A stretch of 64,000 nt of DNA, from positions 9,241 to 73,240 of IMG/VR virus record IMGVR_UViG_2562617057_000010; one strand, given 5' to 3'. Below are positions 2,283-52,447 of the stretch, piece after piece. Position numbers and translations under genes: made by a program. Source of the stretch: a virus (taxonomy: Duplodnaviria > Heunggongvirae > Uroviricota > Caudoviricetes). Position 1 is the stretch's first letter. Every line of letters starts with the position of its first letter. The notes under the pieces were generated by a model. It made no database searches. It was not told the DNA's origin and saw only the letters and a list, made by a program, of their open reading frames with translations.

Positions 2283-4364
2283 TCACCCCGCTGCCAGTTC
2301 GCTGTATTCCGCCAGTTGTCCCGGTGTCGCCAGGGTGTCAACGTGCAGTGTGATATCCTGCTTAACGTTGTTATTGGTGACTTTGTCGCCCCGGTTGTTG
2401 CTTATCTGGTGACTTACCGGCCCGCCCTGGATGGCGGCGCTACGGTTGCCAGTGATAAGCTCCGGGGCGGGTGTCGGTGCGACGGTCTGTTGTGCGGTGC
2501 TGATATTGACACCGGGGATTTTGTTGAGCTTCTCTGCTATCCAGTTCCATGTCCCGGTAAAGGCGCTCTTAATGGAATCCCATATGCCGTCAAAGAGCTT
2601 GCCAATTCCAGCTGTGATATTGCCGAATGTGTCGGCCAGCGAGAAATTTTTAAACCAGTTCGTCAGATTGTCCCATCCGGCTTTAATGCTGTTCCATGCA
2701 TCATCAAACCAGCCCACCACAGCGTTAATGACTTTTAGCAGGGCACTGAAAGCTTCCGTGTCCATGATGGCGGCTTTAATACTGTCCCAGTATTTGATAG
2801 CCAGACAGATCCCTACGGCAAGTGCGGCAATGGCGAGAATAATCAGGGTTATGGGACTTATCAGGAGTTGAAGCGCACCGCCTGCGAATGCCGTCGCCAC
2901 GCCCCACAGGCGCATTGCAACCGCGCCCGCACGTAACACTACGTTCCAGGCTACGATCGCTGCTTTACAGATCCCTGCCCAAAGAGCGACCAGCTTTGAC
3001 CACACCCAGACGGCTTTTTCCTGAATCCATAGCCCCATCAGGCCAAGACGGGTTGAAAGCAGGGAGGGGCGTAATAAATCCAGGGTGAAGATTAGTCCTT
3101 TCCATGCGCCTTTCAGCACGCCAGCAATTCCGCTGAGCCCGGTCATGATAAAGCCGAAGGCCCCCATCGTGATACTGGCAAGCGCCCCTGCTGCGGCAAA
3201 GGCGAGGGTCATTGCAGTGATATATCCCAGCCAGCGGGCAATATTGGGGAACGTATCCAGCCATTTCATGAAGGCTTTCCCGCCGGTGATGATTTTTTGC
3301 AGGAACGGGGCAAAGACGGGATCGAGCCGCAGACCGATGCTGACGCGAACCTGCTCCAGTAAAGAATTAACCTGATCCCACGGGTCAACCATCTTTTTCG
3401 CCATTTCGATGGCTTTATCCATGCCTTTGATGTTACCTAATGTATTGATGTTCCGTTTCAGCCCGTCAACATCTCCGGCCAGTAGTTTAATCATGGACAC
3501 CGCTTCATCGCTGCCAAAGGCTTTTTTCAGCAGGTCTGCATCTGCCACTTTTGACAAATCGCCAAACTTTCCTTTAATCAGGTCGATGATACCGGTAATG
3601 CTTCTGGCACTGCCGTCCCGGTTGGTAAAGTTCAGCCCCAGCACTTTTTGCGCATTCCCAATCCCCGCCAGGAATGATTTATATTTGGTTCCCGCCTCGC
3701 TGCCTGACATGGTGGACTGGAGCTGTCCCAGTACGGCGAACTGTTCAGCGGCAGATACCTTCATTGCCTGCGCGTTGGCACCCAGCGCAGTAAAGGCAGC
3801 AGACATTTCATTACCGGTAGTTTTGAACACCTGAACGGCGGTTGCGGTCTGCCCGGCAATTTGTTCAACCCACTGCGTGCGCCCCATCTTCTCTGCGGTA
3901 TTTTTAAAAACACCGTACATGGTGCCCATATAGTTAGTAATGGTGGCCGTGTCTGATTTGGTGGCTTTGGCGAGAATGGCGGATGCTTCAGTAAATTTTG
4001 GCAGTTCGTCACCCTGAAGTCCTGCGATGGCGGACTGGATATCGTAGGCGCTGCGGACGAAATTGCTGGCGCTTTCGCCGTAGTTAATGGCAAACGTCTG
4101 TGAAGTTTTACGCAGCTGATCGAGTGTTTTATTTGCCACATCCAGCGAGCTGACTTCGGCCAGCGCGGCTTCCATGTCGCGGGCGGGGTTGACCAGTCCT
4201 TTTATTCCCTGAGCAGCCCCCCATAACCCGGCCACACCAAAACCGAGACGTTTAAAGTCGGCTGTTGCCTTGTCAGCAAATCCGGTCACAGCCGATTGCG
4301 CCTGTTTTAAGGGTCTCGTCAGCTTATCAACCAGACTTAGCGTAAAATCAAGTTCAGCAGCCAT
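2283..4364 (-). CDS. tail tape measure protein
   Basis: 693-aa ORF with Ala/Gly-rich N-half and long hydrophobic core (LAFAAAGALASITMGAFGFIMTGLSGIAG...); start ATG overlaps stop of the chaperone -1 frame. Confidence 0.8.
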   Translation of the reverse strand: MAAELDFTLSLVDKLTRPLKQAQSAVTGFADKATADFKRLGFGVAGLWGAAQGIKGLVNPARDMEAALAEVSSLDVANKTLDQLRKTSQTFAINYGESASNFVRSAYDIQSAIAGLQGDELPKFTEASAILAKATKSDTATITNYMGTMYGVFKNTAEKMGRTQWVEQIAGQTATAVQVFKTTGNEMSAAFTALGANAQAMKVSAAEQFAVLGQLQSTMSGSEAGTKYKSFLAGIGNAQKVLGLNFTNRDGSARSITGIIDLIKGKFGDLSKVADADLLKKAFGSDEAVSMIKLLAGDVDGLKRNINTLGNIKGMDKAIEMAKKMVDPWDQVNSLLEQVRVSIGLRLDPVFAPFLQKIITGGKAFMKWLDTFPNIARWLGYITAMTLAFAAAGALASITMGAFGFIMTGLSGIAGVLKGAWKGLIFTLDLLRPSLLSTRLGLMGLWIQEKAVWVWSKLVALWAGICKAAIVAWNVVLRAGAVAMRLWGVATAFAGGALQLLISPITLIILAIAALAVGICLAIKYWDSIKAAIMDTEAFSALLKVINAVVGWFDDAWNSIKAGWDNLTNWFKNFSLADTFGNITAGIGKLFDGIWDSIKSAFTGTWNWIAEKLNKIPGVNISTAQQTVAPTPAPELITGNRSAAIQGGPVSHQISNNRGDKVTNNNVKQDITLHVDTLATPGQLAEYSELAAG

Positions 4365-4851
4365 TACCCACCTTTAAATGCTCTCGCAATGCCGTTATTG
4401 ACGGCAACACTCATGTTTTCGAAATAACGGTTGTCCAGCCAGACCGCAGCGGCAATGTCTTCCGGTGTGTCCTCGCCATCCGGTAGCCAGTGGCGGCGTA
4501 ATACCAGATATTGCGCGTAGCCGTTGCGCTCAATGCCGGACAGTGCCGCCTTTATTTTTTTACGGTGATATCCAGATTGACGGCAAAATCTTCATTGAGT
4601 TTTGCTGCCATCTGAAGGGCTGCTCCCGGGCGGTGAATGAGCTTCTCCAGTTTCTCTTTGTCTTCCGGGTGTACGCAGCGCATCAGGTAGTTTTTGGCTG
4701 GCGCCACCTTGTTATCCATCGTTATTTCATTCACGAACTTGTTGTAGACAGCTTCGGTCGGGGCGAAGCGAATGTCCTCGCCTGCGACGGTCAGGGTGAT
4801 GATGGTGGTATTTTCGTCTTTCATGCTATTTTCCCCGGTGAGTGGTGCCAT
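4364..4851 (-). CDS. tail assembly chaperone, -1 frameshift fusion product (about 161 aa)
   Basis: -1 frame from A AAA AAA site is open for 63 codons (IKAALSGIERNGYAQYLVLRRHWLPDGEDTPEDIAAAVWLDNRYFENMSVAVNNGIARAFKGG) and stops at TAA overlapping the tape measure ATG (TAATG). Confidence 0.45.
4552..4851 (-). CDS. tail assembly chaperone (short, in-frame product)
   Basis: 99-aa ORF directly upstream of tape measure gene; ends ...ITVKK-stop on an A7 run. Confidence 0.6.
   Translation of the reverse strand: MAPLTGENSMKDENTTIITLTVAGEDIRFAPTEAVYNKFVNEITMDNKVAPAKNYLMRCVHPEDKEKLEKLIHRPGAALQMAAKLNEDFAVNLDITVKK
4555..4561 (-). other. slippery heptamer A AAA AAA for programmed -1 ribosomal frameshift
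   Basis: Seven consecutive A on minus strand followed by zero-frame TAA; same site class as dnaX A AAA AAG. Confidence 0.45.
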
Positions 4852-4854
4852 TTT

Positions 4855-5319
4855 TTAATGACATTGTTCAGTAATGTACTGTTGCAGGCCGTTCACTTGT
4901 GCAACGACGGCTTTCGCTTCGGCTCTGAGATGCTGATAATCCCGTTCAGCGTCCGGAGTAAGTCGGGCGGCGGTTGCATCAGTTGAGCCGGTGGCGGTGG
5001 TATCACGCGTGGCGGCGGGCATACAGACGGCGTGGAGCTGCAACCGGCGACGGCCAGAAGCAAGATCGGCGCGTAACTTTTCGGATTCAGCTTTTGCATT
5101 GGCGAGCTCCTTTGTGTATTTCGCATCAAGCGCGGCGTTCTGGCGCTGACGCAGTGTCATGTCGTCAATGGTCTGCTGTCGGGTGTCGGCAAGATTTACG
5201 GCTTTCTGGCGGGCTTTTTCTGCCTTGGTGAAGCGGTTGTGCCAGTAGTCAGCTGTGAAGCCGAGCACGGCCACGGCGACGACCATGAAGACGATAAAGG
5301 CGAGTGTTGCGCGTTTCAT
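4855..5319 (-). CDS. i-spanin (Rz-like)
   Basis: 154 aa, N-terminal TM helix (LAFIVFMVVAVAVLGF) then charged coiled-coil region (DAKYTKELANAKAESEKLRADLASGRRRLQL); follows endolysin. Confidence 0.8.
   Translation of the reverse strand: MKRATLAFIVFMVVAVAVLGFTADYWHNRFTKAEKARQKAVNLADTRQQTIDDMTLRQRQNAALDAKYTKELANAKAESEKLRADLASGRRRLQLHAVCMPAATRDTTATGSTDATAARLTPDAERDYQHLRAEAKAVVAQVNGLQQYITEQCH
4893..5129 (-). CDS. o-spanin (Rz1-like lipoprotein), embedded in the i-spanin gene in another frame
   Basis: Signal peptide with lipobox (LLLAVAGC), Pro-rich mature part (PPPRVIPPPPAQLMQPPP); lies wholly inside the Rz-like ORF; likely true start at internal Met near 5099. Confidence 0.75.
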   Translation of the reverse strand: MMRNTQRSSPMQKLNPKSYAPILLLAVAGCSSTPSVCPPPRVIPPPPAQLMQPPPDLLRTLNGIISISEPKRKPSLHK

Positions 5320-6112: not shown

Positions 6113-6574
6113 CTATTGGTTCATGATGTCCCGAACATCGGTGGCGCTGAGAACCGGAACACCGTCAATTTTGACGAACTCCGGCGAAGTCACCATAAAT
6201 TTGATTTTATGGCTTATGTTGTCACCGCCCTTGCTGTCGATATTCAGCAGGTTACTGATCAGCAGTTTGCAACCAAAGGCTTCCACCCTGAGTTCTGTCT
6301 TTGCTGCACGGGCAAAGAAGAGAAAGTCGGCTTCTTCGATGTCGCGCCAGCTCCCTGCTTCACGCGCGGCTTCACCAAGAAGCTGGAAGTTAACGGTATC
6401 CAGTTCAATTTCACCGCCGGCTTCCACGTCGCCGCGTACCCAGCCATCAGGTACACCGCGCTCCTGAATGGCTTTGGTGTTGTCGGTAATATCAAGGGTG
6501 GCGGTTTTTACGTGAACGATGCGGCCATTAAATGACGTGTCAAAGCTCATACCACTGATGCGTTCGGTGTTCAT
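6113..6574 (-). CDS. tail tube protein (candidate)
   Basis: 153-aa ORF directly downstream of the sheath-sized gene; assignment by size and position. Confidence 0.5.
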   Translation of the reverse strand: MNTERISGMSFDTSFNGRIVHVKTATLDITDNTKAIQERGVPDGWVRGDVEAGGEIELDTVNFQLLGEAAREAGSWRDIEEADFLFFARAAKTELRVEAFGCKLLISNLLNIDSKGGDNISHKIKFMVTSPEFVKIDGVPVLSATDVRDIMNQ

Positions 6575-9459: not shown

Positions 9460-9503
9460 CGTGCCCGCCTGAAGCCGTGGGGCTTTTATGACTAGGTAAT
9501 TTA

Positions 9504-10488: not shown

Positions 10489-10740
10489 ATGAGACAAAGA
10501 GAAGATCGCGACCGCGATTGGCCTTCGCTAAAGATTCAGCTGGCGCTCAAAGATAACGGGTGGTCTTCCTTCCGGGAGCTTTCACTCCATGCTGGTTATG
10601 CTCAGGATTCACTGAAAGCGGTGGTTCGTACACCGAACAAAAAATACGAACGCGTAATTTCTGACGCTATAGGTGTACCGCCAGAAATCATCTGGCCCAG
10701 CCGGTATCGTAACGATGGATTTATCAGGAAGGCGTCGTGA
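10489..10740 (+). CDS. ner: Ner-type DNA-binding regulator
   Basis: 83 aa, first gene of the early operon, Ner-like layout (…IQLALKDNGWSSFRELSLHAGY…PEIIWPSRY). Confidence 0.8.
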   Translation: MRQREDRDRDWPSLKIQLALKDNGWSSFRELSLHAGYAQDSLKAVVRTPNKKYERVISDAIGVPPEIIWPSRYRNDGFIRKAS

Positions 10741-10741
10741 T

Positions 10742-12847
10742 ATGCAGTCGTACGTTACCGTAAATGACCTGCTCGGCGTACCAGGAATGCCAGCCACCAC
10801 AAAAGGCATCCGACAGGCGTTACAGCGTTTTTCTCGTGATCTTGGTGACGTTAGTCGCCGTCGGGAAGGCACAAAAGCCATTGAGTACCACATTGATTGT
10901 CTGCCTGAAATAACACGAAAGGCACTGCGTGAACGCTATGTGGAACAGCTGGTGGCTACAGAGAACAATGTTTCTGAAGTGAAAGCTGTTACCAGAAAAA
11001 CACGCAATCCTGACGCTGTCCAGGCAATCGAAGCATATCGCGGTTCTCCACAACTGATGGAAGAACGCCTGAATGCGCTGACCGAAAACCAGCGCCGGGT
11101 ATCTGAAGCAAGGGCTGCACTGGTGGTGGAGGTGCTGAAGCTGGAAAGCGACGGTAATCTCGGGCGACTGAAAGCCATCAACTTTCTTGTTGAAAAAGCC
11201 CGTAAAGGTGAATTACCGGAGCGCCTGCAACAAGCCGCAGTTAATGCCAATGCAAAGCGTGGTGCCAATCGCACCATCAGTCGTGACCCGCTTTATCAGT
11301 GGGTGCTGAAATACAACCAGTCGCAGAACGCAGCCGAACGACTGCTGTTACTGGCACCAGGAAAGCGCGACGAAATAAAACCGGAAGAAATTAGCTGGCT
11401 ACCTGAATTTCTGGCGCAGTATCGCCAGGCGAATGGCAGACCTATGTCAGAAGCCTACGAGGATTTTGTCGCGGAATGGCAGCGTCGCCATGCTGACGAA
11501 CCATACATGCTGGAGGTGATGCCTTCTTACGATGTGGTGCGTTATGCCATGAAGAAATTGCCGGAAGTGGTGAAACAAAAAGGGCGTGTTACCGGCAGTG
11601 AATACCGTCAGCTTGAAGGATTCACCCGCCGCGACTGGACAGCTATGCCGGTGAATTATGTCTGGATTGGTGACGGTCACGGTATGAAGCTGAAATGTGC
11701 GCATCCGGTTCACGGGCGTCCATTTTCGCCGGAAGTTACGTTTGTCATTGATGGTGGAACCCGGTTTGTGGTTGGCTGGAGTCTTGATCTTGCTGAAAAC
11801 GTGTTTGCTGTTGCCGGTGCGATACAGCACGGTATTCGTAATCACGGGAAACCCTTCCTGTATTACTCGGATAATGGTTCCGGTGAAACGGCAGACATGC
11901 TGGATAAAGAGATCGTCGGGATTCTGCCCCGTCTGGGGATTAACCACCCCACCGGTATTGCCGGAAATCCGCAGGGGCGCGGCATTATTGAGCGCCTGAA
12001 CCGGACGCTGCCGATGCGTATAGCCAGGAGGTATCGCACCTATTTTGGCAGGGGTGCTGACCGGGAATCGTTGCGAGTACTTAATCGTGATCTGCGTTCA
12101 GCGTTTAATGCCCTGCAACAGGACAAGCCGCTGAATGCTCGCCAGAAATCTGCAATGCGCGAGCTGCCGTCCTGGTCAGAACTGATTGAGGCTATTCGCG
12201 AAGGCGTGGAATGGTACAACAACCGCCCGCATTCTGAACTGCCGATGAAACCAAACGGGAAGCATTGCAGCCCGGCTGAGTTCAGGAAAAAACGCCTGGC
12301 GGAAGAAAACACCGAAATTGAGTGGCTGAGCGATCTTGAGCTGCGCGACATGTTCCGTCCGATGGTGGAGCGTCCGGTAAGACGCTGTGAAATCAAATGG
12401 CTTGGGAATATTTATTACGCGCCGGAGCTGCGTGATGAACATGGTCGCAAAGTGCTTATCAGCTATGACATTCATGATGCAGAGCGAATTACAGTGCGCC
12501 GTAAGGATGGCAGTTTTATTTGTGAGGCGATATGGAACGGCAATAAACGCGCAGCCTTTCCTGTCAGTGCGGAATATCACAAACAGCAGCAGCGTATTAA
12601 AGGAATGCGCAAACGCGCTGAGGGAAAAATTCGTGATGCTGAAGATGAAGGTATTCAGGTTATTGAACAAAAAACGACAGAACCCTGGCTGGGGAATGTT
12701 TATCGCCCTGTGGGTAATGTGGTGACAGTTCAGCCTCAGGCTCCTGAGGAGACGCTTGATAATGCATACAACGCTGAGCGTGATGAATATCTGAATCATT
12801 CACTGGATATTCTGGAACAGAAAAGACGTAAAAAGCTGTTTAATTAA
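10742..12847 (+). CDS. Mu A-type DDE transposase
   Basis: About 700 aa; core WIGDGHGMKLK...FLYYSDNGSGE; C-terminus ERDEYLNHSLDILEQKRRKK closely resembles the Mu A C-terminal region; ATG at 10742 just after ner stop (track ORF starts at 10673). Confidence 0.9.
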   Translation: MQSYVTVNDLLGVPGMPATTKGIRQALQRFSRDLGDVSRRREGTKAIEYHIDCLPEITRKALRERYVEQLVATENNVSEVKAVTRKTRNPDAVQAIEAYRGSPQLMEERLNALTENQRRVSEARAALVVEVLKLESDGNLGRLKAINFLVEKARKGELPERLQQAAVNANAKRGANRTISRDPLYQWVLKYNQSQNAAERLLLLAPGKRDEIKPEEISWLPEFLAQYRQANGRPMSEAYEDFVAEWQRRHADEPYMLEVMPSYDVVRYAMKKLPEVVKQKGRVTGSEYRQLEGFTRRDWTAMPVNYVWIGDGHGMKLKCAHPVHGRPFSPEVTFVIDGGTRFVVGWSLDLAENVFAVAGAIQHGIRNHGKPFLYYSDNGSGETADMLDKEIVGILPRLGINHPTGIAGNPQGRGIIERLNRTLPMRIARRYRTYFGRGADRESLRVLNRDLRSAFNALQQDKPLNARQKSAMRELPSWSELIEAIREGVEWYNNRPHSELPMKPNGKHCSPAEFRKKRLAEENTEIEWLSDLELRDMFRPMVERPVRRCEIKWLGNIYYAPELRDEHGRKVLISYDIHDAERITVRRKDGSFICEAIWNGNKRAAFPVSAEYHKQQQRIKGMRKRAEGKIRDAEDEGIQVIEQKTTEPWLGNVYRPVGNVVTVQPQAPEETLDNAYNAERDEYLNHSLDILEQKRRKKLFN

Positions 12848-12881: not shown

Positions 12882-13835
12882 ATGAATATTTCTGATATTC
12901 GCGAAGAACTACGCACACTTGTAGAAAGTGAAAAAGTCACTTTTAAACAAATTGCTATTGAGAGTGATATTTCTACCGGGACTGTCAGTGCGTTTATTAA
13001 CGATAAATACAGCGGCGATAATGAACGTATCGCACAGGTACTGAAGTGCTGGCTTGACGATTATCTTGCTGCCGCAGACCTGCCGGAATTGCCTGGTTTT
13101 GTTCAAACGCAGACGGTAAAACAAATCTGGACAAGTATACGCTTTGCCAGCCTGACAGAGAGTATTGCTGTTATCTGCGGTAATCCTGGTGTGGGTAAAT
13201 CTGAAGCAGCCAAAGAGTATCGCCGTACCAATAATAACGTCTGGATGATCACCATGGCACCATCCCGTGTCAGTGTTCTGGAATGTCTTACGGAACTGGC
13301 GTTTGAGCTGGGAATGAACGGTATCCCACGCTGCAAGGGGCCGTTATCCCGTGAATTGCGCCGTCGTCTTGGGGGAACGCATGGGGTGGTTATTGTAGAT
13401 GAAGCAGACCATCTTGATATTGCGGCGCTGGAAGAACTTCGTTTGTTACAGGAATCAACCCGTATTGGCCTGGTATTGATGGGTAATCACCATCTTTACA
13501 CGAATATGACGGGGGGGAGCAAAACGGTTGAGTTTGCCCGTCTGTTTTCGCGCATAGCAAAACGCACGGCTATCAAAGCGCCCAAAGTTAACGATGTAAA
13601 AGCGATTGCGGAAGCCTGGGATGTTACCGCCAAAAAAGAGCAGGAATTCTTACTGGAGATTGCACAGAAACCAGGTGCAATTCGCACCATGACTTACACA
13701 TTACGTCTTGCTGCCATGAATGCTTACGGTAAAGGCAAACGTGTTAACGAAGATTACCTGCGTGAGGCTTACGAAGAACTGGATCAGGATGTGGATGTTC
13801 AGGAACAGTTGGGTATAAGGAGAGCGAAATCATGA
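12882..13835 (+). CDS. MuB-type transposition ATPase
   Basis: 317 aa, Walker A GNPGVGKS and Walker [11 protein letters not shown]; follows the transposase. Confidence 0.85.
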
Positions 13836-23168: not shown

Positions 23169-24824
23169 ATGAGCACCAGAGAAAGCAAACTTAAAGCCCT
23201 TCATGCGCCCCGCAAAATCGACCTGCGTAGGGAAGCCGAACTGCTCGGCGTGAATATCGTTACCGATATCGGGGAAGCACAGCCCCGCAATGAACCGGTT
23301 TTTCTGGGCTATCAGCGCCGCTGGTTTGAGGATGAAAGCCAGATTTGCATCGCTGAAAAATCCCGTCGTACCGGTCTGACATGGGCCGAAGCGGGCCGCA
23401 ATGTCATGACGGCAGCAAAGCCGCGCCGCCGTGGCGGTCGCAACGTCTTTTATGTGGGTTCCCGTCAGGAAATGGCGCTGGAATACATCGCCGCCTGTGC
23501 CCTGTTTGCCCGCGCCTTTAACCAGCTGGCAAAGGCTGACGTATGGGAGCAGACCTTCTGGGACAGTGACAAAAAAGAAGAAATCCTCACTTATATGATC
23601 CGTTTCCCTAACAGCGGATTTAAGGTGCAGGCGCTGTCAAGCCGTCCGTCTAACCTGCGTGGTTTGCAGGGGGACGTGGTGATTGATGAGGCGGCATTTC
23701 ATGAAGCCCTGGACGAACTCCTGAAAGCGGCCTTTGCTCTCATCATGTGGGGTGCCCGCGTGCGGATCATATCGACACATAACGGCGTCGATAACCTGTT
23801 TAACCAGTACATTCAGGATGCGCGTGAGGGGCGCAAGGATTACAGCGTTCACCGCATCACGCTGGATGATGCCATCGCTGACGGACTGTACCGGCGTATC
23901 TGTTACGTCACGAATCAGCCGTGGTCGCCGGAAGCGGAAAAAGCCTGGCGTGATGGCCTGTACCGGAATGCGCCGAATAAAGAGAGTGCCGACGAGGAAT
24001 ACGGCTGTATTCCAAAAAAATCCGGGGGCGCTTATCTGTCACGCGTGCTGATTGAAGCCGCCATGACGCCAGCGCGGGATATCCCGGTTCTGCGTTTTGA
24101 AGCCCCGGACGATTTTGAATCGCTGACACCACAAATGCGCCACGGCATCGTTCAGGACTGGTGTGAACAGGAGCTGCTCCCGTTGCTCGATGCGCTGTCG
24201 CCGCTCAATAAACACGTACTGGGCGAAGACTTTGCACGCCGTGGCGACCTGACGGTGTTTGTGCCGCTTGCCATCACTCCTGACTTACGCAAACGCGAAT
24301 GTTTCCGCGTGGAGCTGCGTAATGTGACCTATGACCAGCAGCGACAAATCCTTTTATTCATTCTGTCCCGTTTGCCCCGTTTTACCGGCGCTGCATTTGA
24401 TGCCACCGGTAACGGCGGTTATCTGGCAGAAGCCGCCCGTCTGATTTATGGCCCGGAGATGATCGACTGCATCAGTCTGACCGCCGCCTGGTATCAGGAG
24501 TGGATGCCGAAACTGAAAGGCGAGTTTGAAGCGCAGAACATCACGATTGCCCGGCATCAGACCACACTCGATGACCTGCTTCATATCAAGGTGGACAAAG
24601 GTATTCCGCAGATTGATAAGGGGCGCACAAAAGATGAAAGCGGTAAAGGCCGACGACATGGTGACTTTGCCGTGGCGCTCTGTATGGCTGTCAGGGCGTC
24701 TTATATGAATGGTTTTGTTATCGACGAGGACAGCATACAGGCGCTGCCACCACGCCACCGTGGTGATGATGTTGATAACGATGATTTTGATGATTATCAC
24801 CAGTTTGAACGAGGGGGCTGGTAA
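23169..24824 (+). CDS. terminase large subunit (Mu gp28-like)
   Basis: 551-aa ORF immediately before the portal gene in a Mu-type head module. Confidence 0.8.
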   Translation: MSTRESKLKALHAPRKIDLRREAELLGVNIVTDIGEAQPRNEPVFLGYQRRWFEDESQICIAEKSRRTGLTWAEAGRNVMTAAKPRRRGGRNVFYVGSRQEMALEYIAACALFARAFNQLAKADVWEQTFWDSDKKEEILTYMIRFPNSGFKVQALSSRPSNLRGLQGDVVIDEAAFHEALDELLKAAFALIMWGARVRIISTHNGVDNLFNQYIQDAREGRKDYSVHRITLDDAIADGLYRRICYVTNQPWSPEAEKAWRDGLYRNAPNKESADEEYGCIPKKSGGAYLSRVLIEAAMTPARDIPVLRFEAPDDFESLTPQMRHGIVQDWCEQELLPLLDALSPLNKHVLGEDFARRGDLTVFVPLAITPDLRKRECFRVELRNVTYDQQRQILLFILSRLPRFTGAAFDATGNGGYLAEAARLIYGPEMIDCISLTAAWYQEWMPKLKGEFEAQNITIARHQTTLDDLLHIKVDKGIPQIDKGRTKDESGKGRRHGDFAVALCMAVRASYMNGFVIDEDSIQALPPRHRGDDVDNDDFDDYHQFERGGW

Positions 24825-26362
24825 TGGGCCGTATTCTGGATATTTCCGGGCAGCCGTTTGATTTTGACGATGAAATGCAGACCCGCAGCGATGAGCTGGC
24901 AATGGTCATGAAGCGCACGCAGGAGCATCCTTCCAGTGGTGTGACGCCGAACCGGGCCGCGCAGATGCTGCGTGATGCCGAACGCGGTGATCTGACAGCA
25001 CAGGCTGACCTGGCCTTTGATATGGAAGAAAAGGACACCCACCTTTTTTCCGAACTGAGCAAGCGCCGCCTTGCCATTCAGGCGCTGGAATGGCGCATCG
25101 CTCCGGCACGTGATGCCAGCGCACAGGAGAAAAAAGACGCCGACATGCTGAATGAATATCTGCATGATGCGGCGTGGTTTGAAGATGCCCTGTTTGATGC
25201 CGGTGATGCCATTCTCAAGGGTTATTCCATGCAGGAGATTGAATGGGGCTGGCTGGGCAAAATGCGCGTGCCGGTGGCGCTGCATCATCGCGATCCGGCG
25301 CTGTTCTGCGCGAACCCCGATAATCTGAACGAATTACGTCTGCGTGATACGTCTTATCACGGGCTGGAGCTGCAACCGTTCGGCTGGTTTATGCACCGGG
25401 CCAAATCCCGCACCGGGTATGTTGGCACCAATGGCCTTGTGCGCACGCTTATCTGGCCTTTTATTTTTAAAAACTATTCCGTGCGTGATTTTGCAGAGTT
25501 TCTGGAAATTTACGGACTCCCCATGCGCGTCGGTAAATATCCGACCGGCTCCACAAACCGTGAGAAAGCCACGCTGATGCAGGCCGTGATGGATATCGGG
25601 CGACGTGCCGGTGGCATTATTCCGATGGGGATGACGCTGGATTTTCAGAGCGCCGCAGATGGTCAGTCAGACCCCTTTATGGCGATGATTGGCTGGGCAG
25701 AAAAAGCGATTTCAAAAGCCATTCTGGGCGGCACCCTGACCACAGAGGCTGGCGATAAAGGTGCACGGTCGCTGGGTGAAGTGCATGATGAGGTTCGCCG
25801 GGAAATCCGTAACGCGGATGTGGGCCAGCTTGCCCGCAGTATTAACCGTGACCTGATTTATCCCCTGCTGGCACTGAACAGTGACAGCACCATTGATATT
25901 AACCGCCTGCCGGGCATTGTATTTGATACCAGTGAAGCGGGTGATATTACGGCACTGTCTGACGCCATTCCGAAACTGGCGGCGGGAATGCGTATTCCGG
26001 TCTCCTGGATACAGGAAAAACTTCATATTCCACAGCCGGTCGGTGATGAAGCCGTGTTTACTGCTCAACCGGTTGTCCCGGATAACGGTCCGCAGAAAGA
26101 GGCCGCATTATCCGCTGAAGATATCCCGCAGGAGGATGATATCGACCGGATGGGCGTCTCACCGGAAGACTGGCAGCGTTCGGTTGATCCCCTGCTGAAA
26201 CCCGTCATTTTTTCTGTGCTGAAAGATGGCCCGGAAGCCGCCATGAACAAAGCCGCTTCATTATATCCGCAGATGGATGATGCAGAACTTATCGACATGC
26301 TGACCCGTGCCATTTTTGTTGCCGATATATGGGGGCGTCTGGATGCCGCAGCAGACCATTGA
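24824..26362 (+). CDS. portal protein (Mu gp29-like)
   Basis: 512-aa ORF between terminase and F-like head morphogenesis gene; start overlaps terminase stop (TAATG). Confidence 0.8.
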   Translation: MGRILDISGQPFDFDDEMQTRSDELAMVMKRTQEHPSSGVTPNRAAQMLRDAERGDLTAQADLAFDMEEKDTHLFSELSKRRLAIQALEWRIAPARDASAQEKKDADMLNEYLHDAAWFEDALFDAGDAILKGYSMQEIEWGWLGKMRVPVALHHRDPALFCANPDNLNELRLRDTSYHGLELQPFGWFMHRAKSRTGYVGTNGLVRTLIWPFIFKNYSVRDFAEFLEIYGLPMRVGKYPTGSTNREKATLMQAVMDIGRRAGGIIPMGMTLDFQSAADGQSDPFMAMIGWAEKAISKAILGGTLTTEAGDKGARSLGEVHDEVRREIRNADVGQLARSINRDLIYPLLALNSDSTIDINRLPGIVFDTSEAGDITALSDAIPKLAAGMRIPVSWIQEKLHIPQPVGDEAVFTAQPVVPDNGPQKEAALSAEDIPQEDDIDRMGVSPEDWQRSVDPLLKPVIFSVLKDGPEAAMNKAASLYPQMDDAELIDMLTRAIFVADIWGRLDAAADH

Positions 26363-28325: not shown

Positions 28326-29411
28326 ATGAAAAAACACGCGATTGGCATTGCCGCACTGAGTGCGCTGTCCATTGACGATGACGGCTGGTGCCAGCTATTG
28401 CCTGCCGGTCATTTCAGTGCCCGTGATGGTCGTCCGTTTGATGTGACAGGCGGTCAGGGGTGGTTCATCGACGGTGAGATTGCCGGGCGTCTGGTTGAAG
28501 GCGTTCGCGCGCTCAACCAGGACGTGCTGATTGATTACGAGCATAACCAGCTACGTAAGGACAAAGGATTACCCCCGGAACAACTCGTCGCGGCTGGCTG
28601 GTTTAACGCCGATGAAATGCAGTGGCGTGAAGGTGAAGGGTTATTTATCCACCCACGCTGGACGGCGGCGGCCCAGCAGCGCATCGATGACGGCGAATTT
28701 GGTTATCTCTCTGCGGTTTTTCCGTATGACACCGCCACCGGTGCGGTGCTGCAAATCCGCCTTGCTGCGCTGACCAATGACCCCGGTGCCACCGGCATGA
28801 AAAAGCTGACCGCACTGGCGGCAGACCTTCCCGACATCCTTCAACAGGAGAACAAACCCATGAATGAAACGCTGCGCAAGCTGCTTGCGCGTCTTGGGGT
28901 GACTGTCCCCGAAAATGCAGACATCACCGATGAACAGGCAACAGCGGCACTGACCGCACTGGACACGCTGGAAAGTAATGCCGGGAAAGTGGCGTCGTTA
29001 TCCGCCGAACTGGAAAAGGCACAGAACGCCGCCGTTGACCTGACGAAATACGTCCCGGTGGAAAGCTACAACGCCCTGCGTGATGAACTGGCACAGGCGA
29101 CTGCACAAAGCGCCACAGCCAGCCTGAGCGCCGTTCTGGACAAGGCGGAACAGGAAGGCCGCATTTTCAAAAGCGAACGTACCTATCTGGAACAGCTTGG
29201 CGGTCAGATTGGCGTGGCGGCACTGTCGGCACAGCTTGAGAAAAAACAGCCCATCGCTGCGTTATCTGCCATGCAGACCACAACGGTACAAAACCTGTCA
29301 CAGGAAAAACCGGCAGTGGCGGTGCTGTCTGCTGATGAACAGGCAGCAGTGAAGGCGCTCGGCATTACTGAGGCTGAGTATCTGAAAATGAAACAGGAAC
29401 AAGAAAAATGA
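28326..29411 (+). CDS. head protease/scaffold (Mu I-like)
   Basis: 361-aa ORF directly upstream of major capsid gene; C-terminal Ala/Gln-rich helical region typical of scaffolds. Confidence 0.7.
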   Translation: MKKHAIGIAALSALSIDDDGWCQLLPAGHFSARDGRPFDVTGGQGWFIDGEIAGRLVEGVRALNQDVLIDYEHNQLRKDKGLPPEQLVAAGWFNADEMQWREGEGLFIHPRWTAAAQQRIDDGEFGYLSAVFPYDTATGAVLQIRLAALTNDPGATGMKKLTALAADLPDILQQENKPMNETLRKLLARLGVTVPENADITDEQATAALTALDTLESNAGKVASLSAELEKAQNAAVDLTKYVPVESYNALRDELAQATAQSATASLSAVLDKAEQEGRIFKSERTYLEQLGGQIGVAALSAQLEKKQPIAALSAMQTTTVQNLSQEKPAVAVLSADEQAAVKALGITEAEYLKMKQEQEK

Positions 29412-30325
29412 TTGTCACCCCGGCATCCATTAAAGCCCTGATGACCTCCTGGCGTAAGGATTTTCAGGGCGGTCTTGAAGACGCCCCGTCGCAGTACAGC
29501 AAAATTGCAATGGTGGTGAACTCTTCCACCCGCAGTAATACCTATGGCTGGCTGGGTAAATTCCCGACCCTGAAAGAATGGGTGGGTAAGCGAACCATTC
29601 AGCAAATGGAAGCGCATGGCTACTCTATCGCCAATAAAACGTTTGAAGGCACCGTGGGTATTTCCCGTGATGACTTCGAGGATGACAATCTGGGTATTTA
29701 TGCGCCGATTTTTCAGGAGATGGGCCGTTCTGCGGCAGTTCAGCCGGATGAGCTGATTTTTAAACTTCTGAAAGATGGCTTTACCCAGCCCTGCTATGAC
29801 GGTCAGAACTTCTTCGACAAGGAGCATCCGGTATATCCGAATGTGGACGGCACGGGCAGCGCGGTTAATACCTCCAACATCGTTGAGCAGGACAGCTTCA
29901 GCGGTCTGCCATTCTATCTGCTGGACTGCTCCCGCGCAGTCAAACCGCTGATTTTCCAGGAGCGCCGCAAACCGGAACTGGTCGCACGTACCCGTATCGA
30001 TGACGACCACGTTTTTATGGATAACGAGTTCCTGTTTGGTGCCAGCGCCCGCCGTGCTGCCGGTTACGGCTTCTGGCAGATGGCTGTCGCGGTAAAAGGC
30101 GATCTGACGCTGGATAACCTCTGGAAGGGCTGGCAACTGATGCGATCTTTTGAAGGTGATGGCGGTAAGAAGCTGGGCCTGAAGCCGACGCATATCGTTG
30201 TACCGGTCGGGCTGGAAAAAGCCGCAGAGCAACTGCTTAACCGTGAACTGTTCGCGGATGGCAATACCACCGTCTCCAACGAGATGAAGGGCAAGCTGCA
30301 ACTGGTTGTCGCTGACTACCTGTAA
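29408..30325 (+). CDS. major capsid protein (Mu T-like)
   Basis: 305-aa ORF overlapping protease/scaffold stop, followed by a hairpin at 30330-30358. Confidence 0.8.
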   Translation: MIVTPASIKALMTSWRKDFQGGLEDAPSQYSKIAMVVNSSTRSNTYGWLGKFPTLKEWVGKRTIQQMEAHGYSIANKTFEGTVGISRDDFEDDNLGIYAPIFQEMGRSAAVQPDELIFKLLKDGFTQPCYDGQNFFDKEHPVYPNVDGTGSAVNTSNIVEQDSFSGLPFYLLDCSRAVKPLIFQERRKPELVARTRIDDDHVFMDNEFLFGASARRAAGYGFWQMAVAVKGDLTLDNLWKGWQLMRSFEGDGGKKLGLKPTHIVVPVGLEKAAEQLLNRELFADGNTTVSNEMKGKLQLVVADYL

Positions 30326-31772: not shown

Positions 31773-31962
31773 ACCCGCAGCGGGAAAAGCCATCCGTGAC
31801 CCGCTCACGATGAAATTACTGGCGTCTGAGGGAGAAGAAAAGCCCCGTAACAGTTTCTGGATACGTCGCCTTGCAGCCGGTGATGTGGTTGAAGTCGGGA
31901 GCACCGAAAACACGGCGGATGATACCGACACTGCGCCGAAAAAACGGAGTAAATCGAAATGA
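31756..31962 (+). CDS. small protein (Mu gp38 position)
   Basis: 68-aa ORF overlapping both neighbours. Confidence 0.4.
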
Positions 31963-33446
31963 GCGATATTTCATTTAACGCGATCCCGTCAGATGTTCGC
32001 GTTCCTCTGACGTATATCGAATTTGATAACAGTAATGCCGTCAGCGGAACACCGGCACCCCGTCAGCGCGTGCTGATGTTCGGGCAAAGCGGAAGTAAAG
32101 CCAGTGCGGCACCAGACGTGCCTGTCCGTATCCGTTCCGGCTCACAGGCCAGTGCGGCGTTTGGTCAGGGTTCCATGCTGGCACTGATGGCAGATGCATT
32201 CCTGAACGCTAACCGCGTGGCGGAGCTGTGGTGTATCCCGCAGGGGAACGGCACCGGTAATGCTGCTGTCGGTGAAATCTCACTGTCCGGAACGGCAGGC
32301 GAAAACGGCTCGCTTGTGACTTACATTGCCGGTCAGCGACTGGCGGTATCTGTCGCAGCAGGTGCAACGGGAGCGGCGCTGGCTGACCTGCTGGTTGCCC
32401 GAATCAAAGGCCAGCCGGATTTACCGGTGACGGCAGAAGTTCGCGCAGACAGCGGAGATGATGACACCCATGCAGATGTGGTTCTGAGTGCAAAATTTAT
32501 TGGTGCATTATCTGCCGTGGACGTGCGCTGGAACTATTACGCGGGTGAAACCACCCCTTACGGGATTATTACGGCATTCAAAGCCGCCACCGGGAAAAAC
32601 GGCAACCCGGATATCAGCGCCAGTATCGCGGGGATGGGCGATCTGCAATACAAATACATTGTGATGCCCTATACCGATGAACCGAACCTGAACCTGTTAC
32701 GCACGGAATTACAGGAACGCTGGGGACCGGTCAATCAGGCTGATGGCTTTGCCGTGACAGTGCTGTCCGGCACGTATGGCGATATTTCCACGTTTGGTGT
32801 CAGCCGTAATGACCATCTGATCTCCTGTATGGGGATTGCCGGTGCACCGGAACCGTCATATCTGTACGCCGCCACACTGTGTGCCGTTGCCAGCCAGGCG
32901 CTTTCCATCGACCCGGCACGTCCGCTCCAGACGCTGACGCTGCCCGGCAGGCTACCGCCTGCGGTGGGCGATCGTTTCACCTGGTCAGAACGTAATGCGC
33001 TGCTGTTTGACGGCATCTCCACGTTTAACGTGAATGATGGCGGTGAAATGCAGATTGAACGCATGATCACAATGTACCGCACGAACAGGTACGGCGACAG
33101 TGACCCGTCTTATCTGAATGTGAACACCATCGCCACGCTGAGTTATCTGCGTTATTCGCTGCGAACCCGTATCACACAGAAATTCCCGCGCCACAAACTG
33201 GCAAGTGATGGCACCCGCTTTGCCACCGGTCAGGCGGTGGTGACACCTTCCGTGATCCGGACCGAGTTGCTGGCACTGTTTGAAGAATGGGAAAACGACG
33301 GGCTGGTTGAAGACTTCGACACGTTCAAAGAGGAGCTGTATGTCGTGCGTAATACAGCCGATCAGGATCGTCTTGATGTGTTGTGCGGCCCGAACCTGAT
33401 TAACCAGTTCCGCATCTTTGCGGCACAGATCCAGTTCATTCTGTAA
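31959..33446 (+). CDS. contractile tail sheath protein (Mu L-like)
   Basis: 495 aa (Mu L size), followed by 118-aa tube gene. Confidence 0.85.
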
Positions 33447-33455
33447 GGAGCATTT

Positions 33456-33812
33456 ATGGCAGGAAATCAGCGTCAGGGGGTGGCGTACATCCGTGTCAAT
33501 GGCATGGAGCTTGAATCAATGGAAGGTGCTTCCTTCACGCCGTCCGGCACCACCCGTGAAGAAGTGACCGGCTCGCGGGTTTACGGCTGGAAAGGGAAAC
33601 CCCGCGCCGCAAAGCTGGAATGCAAAATTCCGGGCGGTGGTGATATCGGTCTGGATGAAATCATCGGCTGGGAAAACATCACGGCAGAGTTTCAGGCAGA
33701 CACCGGTGAAACCTGGATGATGGCGAATGCCTGGCAGGCAGATGAACCGAAAAACGACGGCGGCGAAATTTCGCTGGTACTGATGGCAAAACAAAGCAAA
33801 CGCATTGCATAA
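33456..33812 (+). CDS. tail tube protein (Mu M-like)
   Basis: 118-aa ORF between sheath and chaperone. Confidence 0.8.
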   Translation: MAGNQRQGVAYIRVNGMELESMEGASFTPSGTTREEVTGSRVYGWKGKPRAAKLECKIPGGGDIGLDEIIGWENITAEFQADTGETWMMANAWQADEPKNDGGEISLVLMAKQSKRIA

Positions 33813-33821
33813 GGGGAAACA

Positions 33822-34256
33822 ATGGACGAAATGAATTTAAGTCCTGAAGCACAGGAACTGCATGACAGCATTGTGGCAGAACTTCAGTCCGGCGGGCTGA
33901 AACTGAAAGACGGCCTGCCGTTCGGCACCGGTGACGAGACTGAAATGCAGTATGACGTGACGCTGCGTGAACTGACCGCAGGCGATCTGATTGATGCCCA
34001 GATGGCGGCTGAAAAAGTGGTAATGAGCAAGGAAGGCCCGGTGCTGGTCAGTTCCCCGTCCCTGATGGGACTGGAAATGCTGCGCCGTCAGATTGCCGGT
34101 GTGGGCTGCCTCAAAGGCCCGTTATCACTGGCGCTGATGCGTAAGCTGTCCGTCGATGACTTCCAGCGTCTGTCGCTGGCAGTGGAGCTGCGCGACATGG
34201 CGGTGGCGGCATCGCTGACGCAAGAACGGGGGCGAGTGGCTGCGGTGCCGGAATGA
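33822..34256 (+). CDS. tail assembly chaperone (Mu gp41 position)
   Basis: 144-aa ORF between tube and tape measure. Confidence 0.55.
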   Translation: MDEMNLSPEAQELHDSIVAELQSGGLKLKDGLPFGTGDETEMQYDVTLRELTAGDLIDAQMAAEKVVMSKEGPVLVSSPSLMGLEMLRRQIAGVGCLKGPLSLALMRKLSVDDFQRLSLAVELRDMAVAASLTQERGRVAAVPE

Positions 34257-34307: not shown

Positions 34308-36473
34308 ATGGGCCTTGTCCCTCCCGCTGTCCCGCTTTTTCCGGCACTGCCAGCAGGCGAAAACCCTCTCTCAATATCACCGTTAAATCAGGAGATTTCT
34401 GTGACCGGGAAACGCTTAAAAGCGTCTGTCATTATTGATCTTAATGGCAATCTTTCCCGGCGTTCCCGCCAGTATTCGAACCAGATAAACGCCCTGTCCC
34501 GCAGCGGGCAGAGTTCCCTGCGTGCCCTGCGTATGGAGGTTGTGCGCGTTTCTGGTGCCATTGACAGAATGGGTTCTCTGTCAACCCGTACATTCCGAAT
34601 GCTGTCAGCCGGGGCGCTGGGTATCGCTGGCGTGGGTTACACCGCCAATAAACTGTTTATTGGTGCAGCCGCCCAGCGTGAGCAGCAGATTATCGCCATG
34701 AACTCGCTCTATCACGGCGATAAGGCCAGAGCACAGGCCATGATGGCGTGGGCGAAGCAGAACGCAAAAGAAACCACCTGGGGGCTGGGTGGTGTTCTGC
34801 AGGAGATCCGCACATCAACTGCGTTTGGCATGACTGATGCCCAGGTAAAACAGTTCATCACCATGCTACAGAACCAGGGCGCGATGCATGGCTGGGATTT
34901 ACCCACTGCACAGGGGGCTTCGTTACAGTTCAAACAGATGTTTGCCCGTCAGCAAATCACGGCGGCGGATGCCAACCTGCTGACCGGTTACGGTATCAAC
35001 GTTTACAAGGTGCTGGCAGATGCAACGGGTGAGGATGAGAAAAAAATCCGTAAGCTGGGTGAAAAAGGCAAACTGGGCCTGAAATCCATCCTGACGGTGT
35101 TCAGAATCTTACTGGAACAGTCAAAAGGCGCACAGGCGGCGGCCATGAACTCCTGGGACGGGATGATGGCCCAGATGGAGGGCAATCTGCTTGAGTTTCG
35201 TACAAAGGTGGCAAACAGCGGCCCCTTTGAAGAAATCAAGAACGAGATGCGCCGGGTACTTAACTGGCACGACATGGCGGATAAATCCGGGGAACTTGAC
35301 GCACTGGCAGAAAACATTGGTCAGAAATTTCTGACCACGTTCAGAACGGTAAAAATCGCGGCGCAGGAATTATGGCGCTGGCTGAAACCGGGTAAAGATG
35401 CGCTGGCATGGGTTGACCAGAATATTGCCAGCCTGAAAAAACTGGCTGCTGTTCTGGTGTCTGTCTGGCTTGCCAATAAAGCCCTGAGAGCAGGCTGGGC
35501 CGTGGCAAAACCTTCGTGGCAGGTTGCCAGTTACCCGTTTAAAACCGGGCGTCGTATGTGGCGCTGGATGCGGAACCGCAAACGTGGGCGGGCAGGTCTG
35601 CCGGTGCCGGATGCCATGACGTCTGAGACGCTGTTGCAGGGCACCGGCATTCAGCGTGTGTTTGTCATCAACTGGCCCCGTGGATTTGGTGGCTACGGGA
35701 GTGGCGGCGGTCGTCGCGGACGGAGCGGCGGAAGAATGGCCCCGCTGTTACCCCGCCAGCCGTTATTGCTGTCCGGGCCACAGCCGCTGGCATTACCTGC
35801 ACCACGCCCTGTACTGGCATTACCCCCACCCGGCGTACCGGTAACGGCACGGCCTGCACCATTACCTTTACCCGGTAAATCCGGTCTTCTGAGCAGGCTT
35901 GCAGGCAGTGCTGCCGGGCAACTGGTTACGGGAACGGTCGGAAAGCTGGCTGATGCCGGGCGTGCTGTTGGCGGGTGGTTTTCCGGTATCGGAAACAAAC
36001 TTGCAGGCAGTGCGATCGGTCGGGTTGTGACAAAAGGTGCCGGGGCGCTGGGCTGGATGGGGAAAGGTGCCGGTCGTGCGTTGTCATGTCTGGGTGGCCC
36101 GGTAATGGGGGCACTCCAGCTTGCCCCCGTCCTGATGGATGAGCAGGCGTCAACCCATGAAAAAGCAGGCGCAATTGGCAGTACAGCCGGTGCATGGCTC
36201 GGCGGTGCCGTTGGCAGCCTTGCCGGACCGCTGGGTACGGTTGCCGGTGCCACGCTGGGCAGTGTCGCCGGGGAGTATCTGGGCGGTTTTGTAACCGACC
36301 TGTATCAGAAATGGACGGCCCCGGATAAGGAACCGCAGGAACAAAAAGTGAATGCGGAAGCCTCGCTGCGCGTCGAACTTGGCGAGGGGTTACGCCTGAC
36401 CAGTTCCCGTGTCACCGAGGATGGTATGGGGCTGAATATTTACGCGGGCGATAACTACATTACGGGCTGGTAA
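34308..36473 (+). CDS. tail tape measure protein (Mu Y-like)
   Basis: About 700 aa, Gly/Ala/Pro-rich; alternative start GTG at 34401 with AGGAG upstream. Confidence 0.8.
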
Positions 36474-44893: not shown

Positions 44894-45082
44894 ATGAAAT
44901 CAATTCGCTGTAAGAACTGCAACAAACTGTTATTTAAGGCGGGTTCCTTTGATCACATTGAAATCAGGTGTCCGCGTTGCAAACGTCACATCATAATGCT
45001 GAATGCCTGCGAGCATCCCACGGAGAAACATTGTGGGAAAAGAGAAGAAATCACGCATTCTGACGAAACCGTGCGTTATTGA
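44894..45082 (+). CDS. com: Com zinc-finger translational activator of mom
   Basis: 62 aa, [16 protein letters not shown]...[12 protein letters not shown], matching Mu Com as recalled from memory; overlaps mom start. Confidence 0.85.
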
Positions 45083-45728
45083 GTATGAAGGCCAGATTGT
45101 TGGCTATGGTTCAAAGGAGCTGCGCGTTGAAACCATATCCTGCTGGCTGGCCCGCACAATCATTCAGACAAAACATTACTCCCGCCGTTTTGTGAATAAC
45201 TCTTACCTTCACCTGGGAGTATTCAGCGGACGTGAGCTGGTTGGCGTTCTCCAGTGGGGATATGCCCTTAACCCCAACTCAGGTCGTCGTGTCGTGCTTG
45301 AAACGGATAACCGGGGTTATATGGAGCTGAACCGCATGTGGCTACACGACGACATGCCCCGCAACTCTGAATCACGGGCCATCAGTTATGCGCTGAAAAC
45401 CATCAGATTACTGTATCCATCAGTGGAATGGGTACAGTCCTTTGCAGACGAACGCTGCGGACGTGCTGGCGTTGTGTATCAGGCGTCAAATTTTGATTTT
45501 ATTGGCGGCCATGAAAGCACGTTCTACGAGCTGGATGGCGAGTGGTATCACGAGATAACGATGAACGCGATTAAGCGCGGTGGACAACGAGGCGTGTATT
45601 TACGGGCTAATAAAGAGCGTGCCGTGGTGCATAAATTTAATCAGTATCGCTACATCAGGTTCCTGAACAAGCGAGCAAAGAAGCGGCTAAATACTAAGCT
45701 ATTCAGGATTCAGCCATATCCGAAATGA
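45003..45728 (+). CDS. mom: Mom DNA modification protein (acetyltransferase-like)
   Basis: 241-aa ORF overlapping com, Mu Mom-like, last gene before the right end. Confidence 0.85.
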
Positions 45729-45846: not shown

Positions 45847-45860
45847 GCGCTTTACTTTCG

Positions 45861-52198: not shown

Positions 52199-52447
52199 CT
52201 ATGCGGTTCGCCCGGCATTTCTGAAATCAATGTGCAATAGCTCCAGTGCGGCTTCTTTATCAGCACCCGTTAATTCGAGATAATCCCAGAGGCTGGCGCA
52301 TAAACCACAGTTTCGCGAAAATATTCCGTCTGGATTTGCTCCGTTTTTCAGCCACAAATCATAAGTAATATAAAATCCGTGAAGTTGTTGCCTGATATTT
52401 TCTTTGATTTCCTGTACTGGCACGGTGTCTGGTAATTGCTCTCTCAT
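52199..52447 (-). CDS. hypothetical protein (distal to replication gene)
   Basis: 82-aa ORF overlapping upstream gene by 4 nt. Confidence 0.4.
   Translation of the reverse strand: MREQLPDTVPVQEIKENIRQQLHGFYITYDLWLKNGANPDGIFSRNCGLCASLWDYLELTGADKEAALELLHIDFRNAGRTA

Follow-up and report, generated by a model that had tools for sequence, protein, structure and literature searches.

When a tail assembly chaperone gene ends in a run of adenines, with a stop codon directly behind it and a second open reading frame (ORF) continuing in another phase, does it encode one protein or two? We address this question for a chaperone locus on the minus strand of a 64,000-nucleotide (nt) stretch of viral DNA, positions 9,241-73,240 of the IMG/VR record IMGVR_UViG_2562617057_000010, which we call the window and whose own numbering we use throughout. 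We propose that the locus is an HP1-type chaperone gene giving two proteins from one start by a -1 frameshift, a reading to which we assign a probability of about 0.85. A sequence-only reading of the window had already suggested a chaperone/chaperone-extension arrangement, and this predicted arrangement is supported by every available computational test: it agrees with the position of the locus, its conservation, the switch of frame at the slip site, the lack of a start codon belonging to the extension, and a precedent in the GenBank record of phage ACA1.

By direct reading, the chaperone ends with the codons GTA (4563-4561), AAA (4560-4558), AAA (4557-4555) and TAA (4554-4552), the seven bases ahead of the TAA forming the heptamer A AAA AAA in the X XXY YYZ phase of a -1 slippery site (Table 1). 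The sequence-only reading had described a 99-codon ORF with this ending, the heptamer at 4555-4561, and a -1 frame open for 63 codons up to a TAA overlapping the tape-measure ATG; each of these is present as described, on the minus strand, which that reading had left out. The -1 frame begins with ATA at 4555 (ATA AAG GCG...) and translates as IKAALSGIERNGYAQYLVLRRHWLPDGEDTPEDIAAAVWLDNRYFENMSVAVNNGIARAFKGG. A ribosome that slipped on the heptamer would use base 4555 twice and produce a fusion of 153 amino acids (aa), complement join(4555..4824, 4364..4555), with the predicted junction peptide ...TVKKIKAALSGIER (VKK-IKAALSGIER, that is, K-IKAALSGIER, VKKIKAALSGIER). The -1 frame opens past a TGA at 4594-4592, and the A7 heptamer is the sole X XXY YYZ motif within the 13 codons over which both frames are open; the +1 frame of the window closes within 7 codons. 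The -1 ORF fills exactly the gap between the end of the chaperone and the tape-measure gene, its TAA (4366-4364) sharing one base with the tape-measure ATG (4364-4362) in the sequence TAATG. Taken alone, the A7 run carries no signal beyond chance, because the window holds 21 such runs against 17 expected. What goes beyond chance is the combination of a gap-filling -1 ORF, a match of that ORF to the family DUF6890, and conservation of the arrangement in 113 distinct relatives.

Both halves of the predicted fusion belong to defined protein families. The chaperone ORF matches PF10963 (Phage_TAC_10) with E 4.5e-31 and 107.3 bits against a gathering threshold of 25.7, and the extension matches PF21830 (DUF6890) with E 9e-24 and 83.4 bits against a gathering threshold of 23.6; in PHROGs the hits are phrog_1214 and, for the extension, phrog_7050, both labeled 'unknown function'. 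The fold of the N-terminal chaperone domain matches solved tail assembly chaperones, and this domain has a chaperone-like fold. A sequence search against solved structures returned only insignificant matches, to ATP synthase subunit b.

The sizes of the two products depend on the start codon. The sequence-only reading had taken the longest version of the ORF, from the ATG at 4851, and so expected proteins of 99 and about 161 aa. That ATG sits 3 nt past the stop of the upstream Rz gene, without a ribosome-binding site. A second ATG at 4824 has GGGGAA 6 nt upstream, relatives begin at the equivalent position with good ribosome-binding sites, and RefSeq places the start of its 90-aa 'putative phage tail assembly chaperone' there as well. 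The second ATG is the likely start, and the products would therefore be 90 and 153 aa long.

The strongest evidence for the frameshift comes from relatives. We collected 129 loci, comprising the window, 3 phage records, 1 Escherichia coli genome, 44 species genomes and 80 viral contigs, with hosts that include Salmonella, Enterobacter, Kluyvera, Cedecea, Morganella, Providencia, Photorhabdus and Serratia among the Enterobacterales sampled, as well as Aeromonas, Photobacterium, Vibrio and Pseudomonas. Of these, 126 share the arrangement described next, representing 113 distinct nucleotide sequences with 37-100% aa identity; the other three comprise a copy with an internal disruption and two contigs cut off too soon. 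In 126/129 loci the chaperone ends GTA AAA AAY followed immediately by a stop, the last base of the heptamer being C in 102 of the distinct sequences (AAAAAAC) and A in 11 (AAAAAAA), and in the same number of loci the -1 frame stays open for another 62-65 codons. The +1 frame is shorter in every locus, mostly closing within about 10 codons and never extending beyond 31. Absence of the -1 frame from relatives had been named beforehand as grounds for abandoning the frameshift; that frame is instead conserved in 113/113 distinct relatives. A tblastn search with the 153-aa fusion gave the same picture: each of the 76 phage records with a match yielded two pieces in two frames that together span 90% or more of the query, among them HP1, HP2, K139, Kappa, F108, phiO18P, ESSI-2, phi3, ACA1 and C5a.

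This breadth bears directly on the possibility that the locus is simply a broken gene, in which a 1-nt insertion or deletion in the homopolymer, whether real or a sequencing artefact, split a single chaperone-extension ORF. Homopolymers are error-prone, and the prophage that carries the locus, split by a Mu-like element, may be in decay. The same two-frame layout with the same stop position nevertheless recurs across many genera (113 distinct sequences); at 99.7% identity, the window's sequence is present in six complete E. coli genomes, and a search of the protein database turned up no fused single-frame version. We exclude a pseudogene or homopolymer error because the arrangement is conserved in isolated, viable phages (HP1, K139, F108 and phiO18P), and we give this explanation almost no weight.

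A second possibility is that the locus holds two independent genes, a chaperone and a small DUF6890 protein, the latter translated from a start codon of its own or through termination-reinitiation where the chaperone ends. A separate small coding sequence (CDS) is indeed annotated in RefSeq and in several GenBank records, and the junction reads CTGA in 62/113 relatives, resembling an overlapping stop and start. The alignment of the extension tells otherwise. It is ungapped from the first post-slip codon, with the consensus L-T-x-R-V-x-A-I-E-x-N-x-L-E-Q...LRRHYLP...WLDN...ANGI..AFKG, and the 3-base period of variability follows the 0 frame until the heptamer and the -1 frame immediately after it (entropy in the extension of 0.70 for first, 0.51 for second and 1.43 for third codon positions), so that both amino-acid conservation and -1 frame periodicity start at the very first post-slip codon. 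The extension has no conserved start: the first ATG falls at codon 47 in 69/113 sequences, including the window (codon 47 of 63), and is absent in 38/113, and other start codons are scattered. The junction codon is ATA in the window and the non-initiator CTA in 39 distinct relatives, which rules out termination-reinitiation at CTGA, and we found no promoter, terminator or ribosome-binding site between the chaperone and extension ORFs. Together, these patterns show that the -1 frame of the extension is conserved, codes for protein and lacks a start of its own, and they make two separate genes very improbable.

The existing annotation illustrates the point. RefSeq calls a 30-aa 'DUF6890 family protein' (WP_432206260.1) from an ATT codon, at 4456-4364 on the minus strand of the window, equivalent to 104443-104535 of NZ_CP011416.1. 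This call looks like an artefact of an unrecognised frameshift, because it covers only the last 30 of the 63 conserved codons.

Conservation at the junction itself extends to individual nucleotides. The six leading A's of the heptamer are invariant in the 113 distinct sequences, among them the third positions of GTA and AAA, where changes would be synonymous. An adjacent 0-frame stop is likewise present in 113/113 (TGA in 62, TAA in 49 and TAG in 2). The base after the T of this stop doubles as the 4-fold-degenerate third position of a -1 frame Leu codon, yet no base but G or A occurs there; because of this restriction, the 0-frame stop itself is under selection. These patterns show nucleotide-level selection on both the heptamer and the adjacent stop. 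Beyond the closest relatives, A AAA AAC plus a stop occurs in HP1, K139, F108 and vB_YenM_324, and A AAA AAA TAG in two Vibrio phages; the distant ACA1 has A AAA AAA and Pseudomonas phage phi3 has A AAA AAG, the dnaX heptamer, each with the 0-frame stop 7 codons on. Thus, the heptamer is universal and the adjacent stop confined to closer relatives.

The composition of the site also bears on whether ribosomes or RNA polymerase would do the slipping. Appreciable transcriptional slippage in bacteria needs runs of about 8-9 or more. If RNA polymerase added an extra A on the A7 run, the resulting A8 mRNAs would encode the fusion in a single frame, and in the window its amino-acid sequence would be identical to that of a ribosomal product. 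The site is a homopolymer of 7 A, and transcriptional slippage on A/T runs is known to give rise to products of this kind (PMC5009743). We nonetheless regard this explanation as unlikely, because most relatives carry only six A's: 102/113 have just six and then C, and phi3 has A AAA AAG. The motif always stands in X XXY YYZ phase, a regularity for which the conserved V-K-K/N residues are partly responsible, and the conserved adjacent stop has a rationale for ribosomal shifting and none for polymerase slippage.

We therefore return to ribosomal frameshifting and propose the following model. Most ribosomes would read the 90 codons of the chaperone and terminate at the TAA (4554-4552), yielding a short chaperone analogous to lambda gpG and P2 gpE. 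A minority would slip back 1 nt on A AAA AAA, either with Lys-tRNA in each of the two sites, P and A, or by movement of the P-site tRNA alone with the neighbouring stop in the A site, and would then read 63 further codons to the TAA that overlaps the tape-measure ATG. This 153-aa fusion would correspond to gpGT and gpE+E'. If lambda is a guide, the N-terminal domain common to both products may coat the tape-measure protein, the DUF6890 extension may recruit the tail tube protein, and neither chaperone protein would remain in the virion. In lambda, where the 30:1 ratio of the two products matters, binding to the tape measure is the task of the G part and binding to the tube protein that of the T part (PMC5009743). 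For the window, we infer the ribosomal nature of the slippage, its low efficiency and the roles of both domains.

Several results weigh against this model. In E. coli, A AAA AAG is reported to be far shiftier than either A AAA AAA or A AAA AAC (PMC5009743), and the efficiency at this site may be low, although modest shiftiness of A AAA AAA fits a low-level shift. In the open literature we found no observed product or shift for any phage of the PF10963 family, and the frameshift is predicted here from sequence; we found no open-access paper that mentions DUF6890 or PF10963 or describes a frameshift for the PF10963 family, and a paper on phiA051 lists the chaperone and extension ORFs separately. 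A database of 5.8 billion proteins contains no fused protein, its matches covering at most 59% of the fusion and only the chaperone part; the missing entries reflect annotation practice, yet give no independent support. The host prophage is interrupted by a Mu-like prophage, making expression in the present strain uncertain. Finally, a stimulatory RNA structure could not be shown for the window: the fold downstream of the heptamer in the window is not significant against shuffled sequences (z = -0.9; -0.2 for the 60-nt segment), RNAalifold on 31 diverse relatives gave no consensus structure, and an 8-base-pair hairpin seen in many relatives is absent from the window, where only 1/8 pairs forms.

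The minimum-free-energy fold of the window does contain a candidate stem, GGCGGC (4550-4545) with GCCGCC (4497-4492), beginning 4 nt past the heptamer. As a stimulator it is not supported: the z-score is insignificant and the stem is not conserved. In an ESSI-2-like subset of the family, by comparison, an 8-base-pair hairpin with a 15-nt loop lies 8 nt past the heptamer (columns 21-28 and 44-51 of our alignment A3; loci L058, L092, L114 and L048 are examples). In these relatives 66% of cells are paired, against 20-46% when the pairing is slid along the alignment, and there is some covariation, as in L048, where CUAACCCG / CGGGUUAG stand against CGAGUCCG / CGGACUCG as compensatory changes. Other relatives, in Aeromonas and in locus L043, have long GC-rich stems in place of this hairpin, and per-sequence z-scores just downstream of the heptamer average -0.93 against mostly positive controls, with the window at -0.2. 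Different lineages of the family may thus use different stimulators. Upstream, a conserved weak UGGA lies 9 nt before the heptamer; it overlaps conserved Leu-Asp/Glu codons, where nucleotide and protein constraint are inseparable.

A tentative alternative to RNA structure is that the family's universal stimulator is the 0-frame stop directly after the heptamer, a 'shifty stop', though we hold this to be doubtful as a general rule. It is consistent with the stop in 113/113 sequences, with the Leu third position that is only G or A, and with the lack of a shared RNA structure; in the distant ACA1 and phi3 the stop is not adjacent to the heptamer. If this idea is right, ribosomes would shift with the stop codon still unread in the A site, and competition with release factors would determine how much short product is made relative to long.

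How the locus relates to known frameshifted chaperones can be judged most closely against P2, since the sequence-only reading had called the gene P2-like. Like P2 gpE/gpE+E', the window gene belongs to a member of the Peduoviridae and immediately precedes the tape-measure gene, the products are nearly equal in size (91 and 142 aa in P2, 90 and 153 aa in the window), and in both the extension stop overlaps the tape-measure ATG (GenBank annotation, NC_001895). The families differ: P2 E+E' consists of PF10109 (Phage_TAC_7) and PF06528 (Phage_P2_GpE), the window fusion of PF10963 and PF21830 only. P2 slips on T TTT TTG with the 0-frame stop 6 codons later, whereas the window has A AAA AAA with the stop adjacent, and the P2 chaperone directly follows the tube gene, whereas in the window holin, lysozyme and Rz lie between them, as in HP1. 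The P2 frameshift was reportedly shown experimentally by Christie and colleagues in 2002, in the FETUD tail operon; that of the window is predicted from its sequence. Homology to P2 gpE/E+E' was tried and rejected, as hhalign of the window fusion profile against P2 E+E' gave a probability of 0.1% and the Pfam families differ. The window gene is thus an analogue of P2 gpE and not a detectable homologue. 'P2-like' therefore holds for the prophage, which belongs to the Peduoviridae, and not for the chaperone, which is of the HP1 orf26 type with a different heptamer. As for a comparison of the extension with known frameshifted products, also suggested earlier, both pieces are found in the 76 matching phage records, and the fusion shows no detectable relation to P2 E+E'.

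Much closer are HP1 orf26 (UniProt P51730), K139 orf30, F108 Orf31/32, phiO18P and ESSI-2, which share the Pfam families of the window and its gene order of sheath, tube, lysis cassette, chaperone, extension and tape measure. Their slip site lies at the same codons (V-K-K/N) with an adjacent stop and a 60-64-codon -1 extension. HP1 itself is about 42% identical to the window and has A AAA AAC in place of A AAA AAA, and the records of HP1, K139 and F108 leave the extension unannotated or give it as a separate small ORF, with no frameshift annotated. By sequence, the window chaperone clearly belongs to the HP1 orf26 family. A PF10963 homologue in Pseudoalteromonas phage ACA1 (gp36/gp36a, GenBank OR438928) has A AAA AAA at the same codons, and its gp36a record gives a joined CDS with the note 'projected programmed frameshift analogous to that in phage P2'; it is about 37% identical to the window, has its stop 7 codons past the heptamer where the window has it adjacent, and its frameshift is likewise a prediction.

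Two further systems are analogous in mechanism. The lambda G/GT frameshift is proven experimentally; it belongs to a non-contractile tail, uses the heptamer G GGA AAG and has no sequence similarity to the window. E. coli dnaX resembles the window in its all-A heptamer of Lys codons, read by the same tRNA-Lys, and the relative phi3 uses exactly the dnaX heptamer A AAA AAG. Unlike the window, dnaX combines that heptamer with an upstream Shine-Dalgarno-like element and a downstream hairpin; in the window, with A AAA AAA, a hairpin is not demonstrable, and a stop codon directly follows the slip site.

The genes around the chaperone agree with this assignment. Going upstream lie Rz, lysozyme, holin, tube (PF10772, HP1_Orf24; 6113-6574) and sheath (DUF2586), and downstream of the tape-measure gene are DUF2590 and baseplate J. 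The chaperone and extension abut the tape-measure ORF, and the tube gene is set apart by holin, lysozyme and Rz, as in HP1. By its gene content, this is the tail module of an HP1-type Peduoviridae prophage. The same sequence, at 99.7% identity, occurs as a prophage in 6/5426 complete E. coli genomes, where it adjoins yecA and has P2-family capsid, terminase, portal, ogr and replication genes. An embedded 78-codon ORF (4893-5129, minus strand), which could be the Rz1, or o-spanin, partner, occupies another frame of the Rz-type spanin gene (PF03245; 4855-5319, minus strand) that immediately precedes the chaperone.

Table 1. Coordinates of the chaperone locus and of genes in the Mu-like prophage, in window numbering.
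Feature	Position	Strand	Remarks
Tail assembly chaperone ORF, 0 frame	4552..4824	-	90 aa; probable start ATG 4824-4822, stop TAA 4554-4552
Longest version of chaperone ORF	4851..4552	-	99 codons from ATG 4851
Slippery heptamer A AAA AAA	4555..4561	-	X XXY YYZ phase; spans final two chaperone sense codons
0-frame stop TAA	4552..4554	-	immediately 3' of heptamer; candidate 'shifty stop' context
-1 frame extension	4364..4555	-	63 codons (4555..4367) plus stop TAA 4366-4364
Overlap zone, 0 and -1 frames both open	4555..4591	-	13 codons; -1 frame opens past TGA 4594-4592
Candidate downstream stem GGCGGC / GCCGCC	4492..4550	-	4 nt past heptamer; minimum-free-energy fold
Tail tape-measure gene	2283..4364	-	693 aa; PF10145, E 1.7e-28; RefSeq annotation
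MuA	10673-12847		Mu-like prophage
MuB	12882-13835		Mu-like prophage
Mu portal	24824-26362		Mu-like prophage
gpT capsid	29408-30325		Mu-like prophage
Sheath	31959-33446		Mu-like prophage
Tube gene	33456-33812		Mu-like prophage
Tape measure	34308-36473		Mu-like prophage
Mom	45003-45728		Mu-like prophage

Inserted inside the HP1-type prophage is a 36.4-kilobase (kb) Mu-like transposable prophage (9487-45854), located between the stop of gpM (small terminase), which it closely follows, and the head-completion gene. A CTTT duplication flanks it at its two junctions (9483-9486 and 45855-45858), and its ends form imperfect inverted repeats (TATGAC...ATTCAAGATA). The insertion junction occurs in 0/5426 complete E. 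coli genomes, and the uninterrupted HP1-type prophage is found in NZ_CP011416.1. The tail genes may be separated from their late promoter by this insertion. The Mu-like prophage has a tail assembly chaperone of its own (33822-34256, plus strand; PF23746, Gp41_Mu), between its tube and tape-measure genes and with a weak match to PF10109, the P2 gpE family; the window therefore holds two unrelated chaperone families. A related E. coli genome (L138, 13700-17061) carries an extra 3.4 kb in the early region of the prophage, a segment that the window lacks at 52207-52211 and that comprises an IS600 transposase (with an annotated programmed frameshift), a partition-gene fragment and a helix-turn-helix/PIN gene pair.

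Frameshifted chaperone pairs are already well known in long-tailed phages, and the present locus is an ordinary instance of them; no concept is changed. Its consequences are chiefly for how this phage group is described. RefSeq and most phage records currently show a chaperone plus a truncated DUF6890 protein, or leave the extension unannotated. On the evidence presented here, the HP1-type tail assembly chaperone would acquire DUF6890 as its C-terminal domain through the frameshift, and the fusion of about 153 aa should be annotated as a joined CDS across the whole phage group. The HP1-type genes would then represent one more independent chaperone family that keeps the frameshift strategy of lambda and P2.

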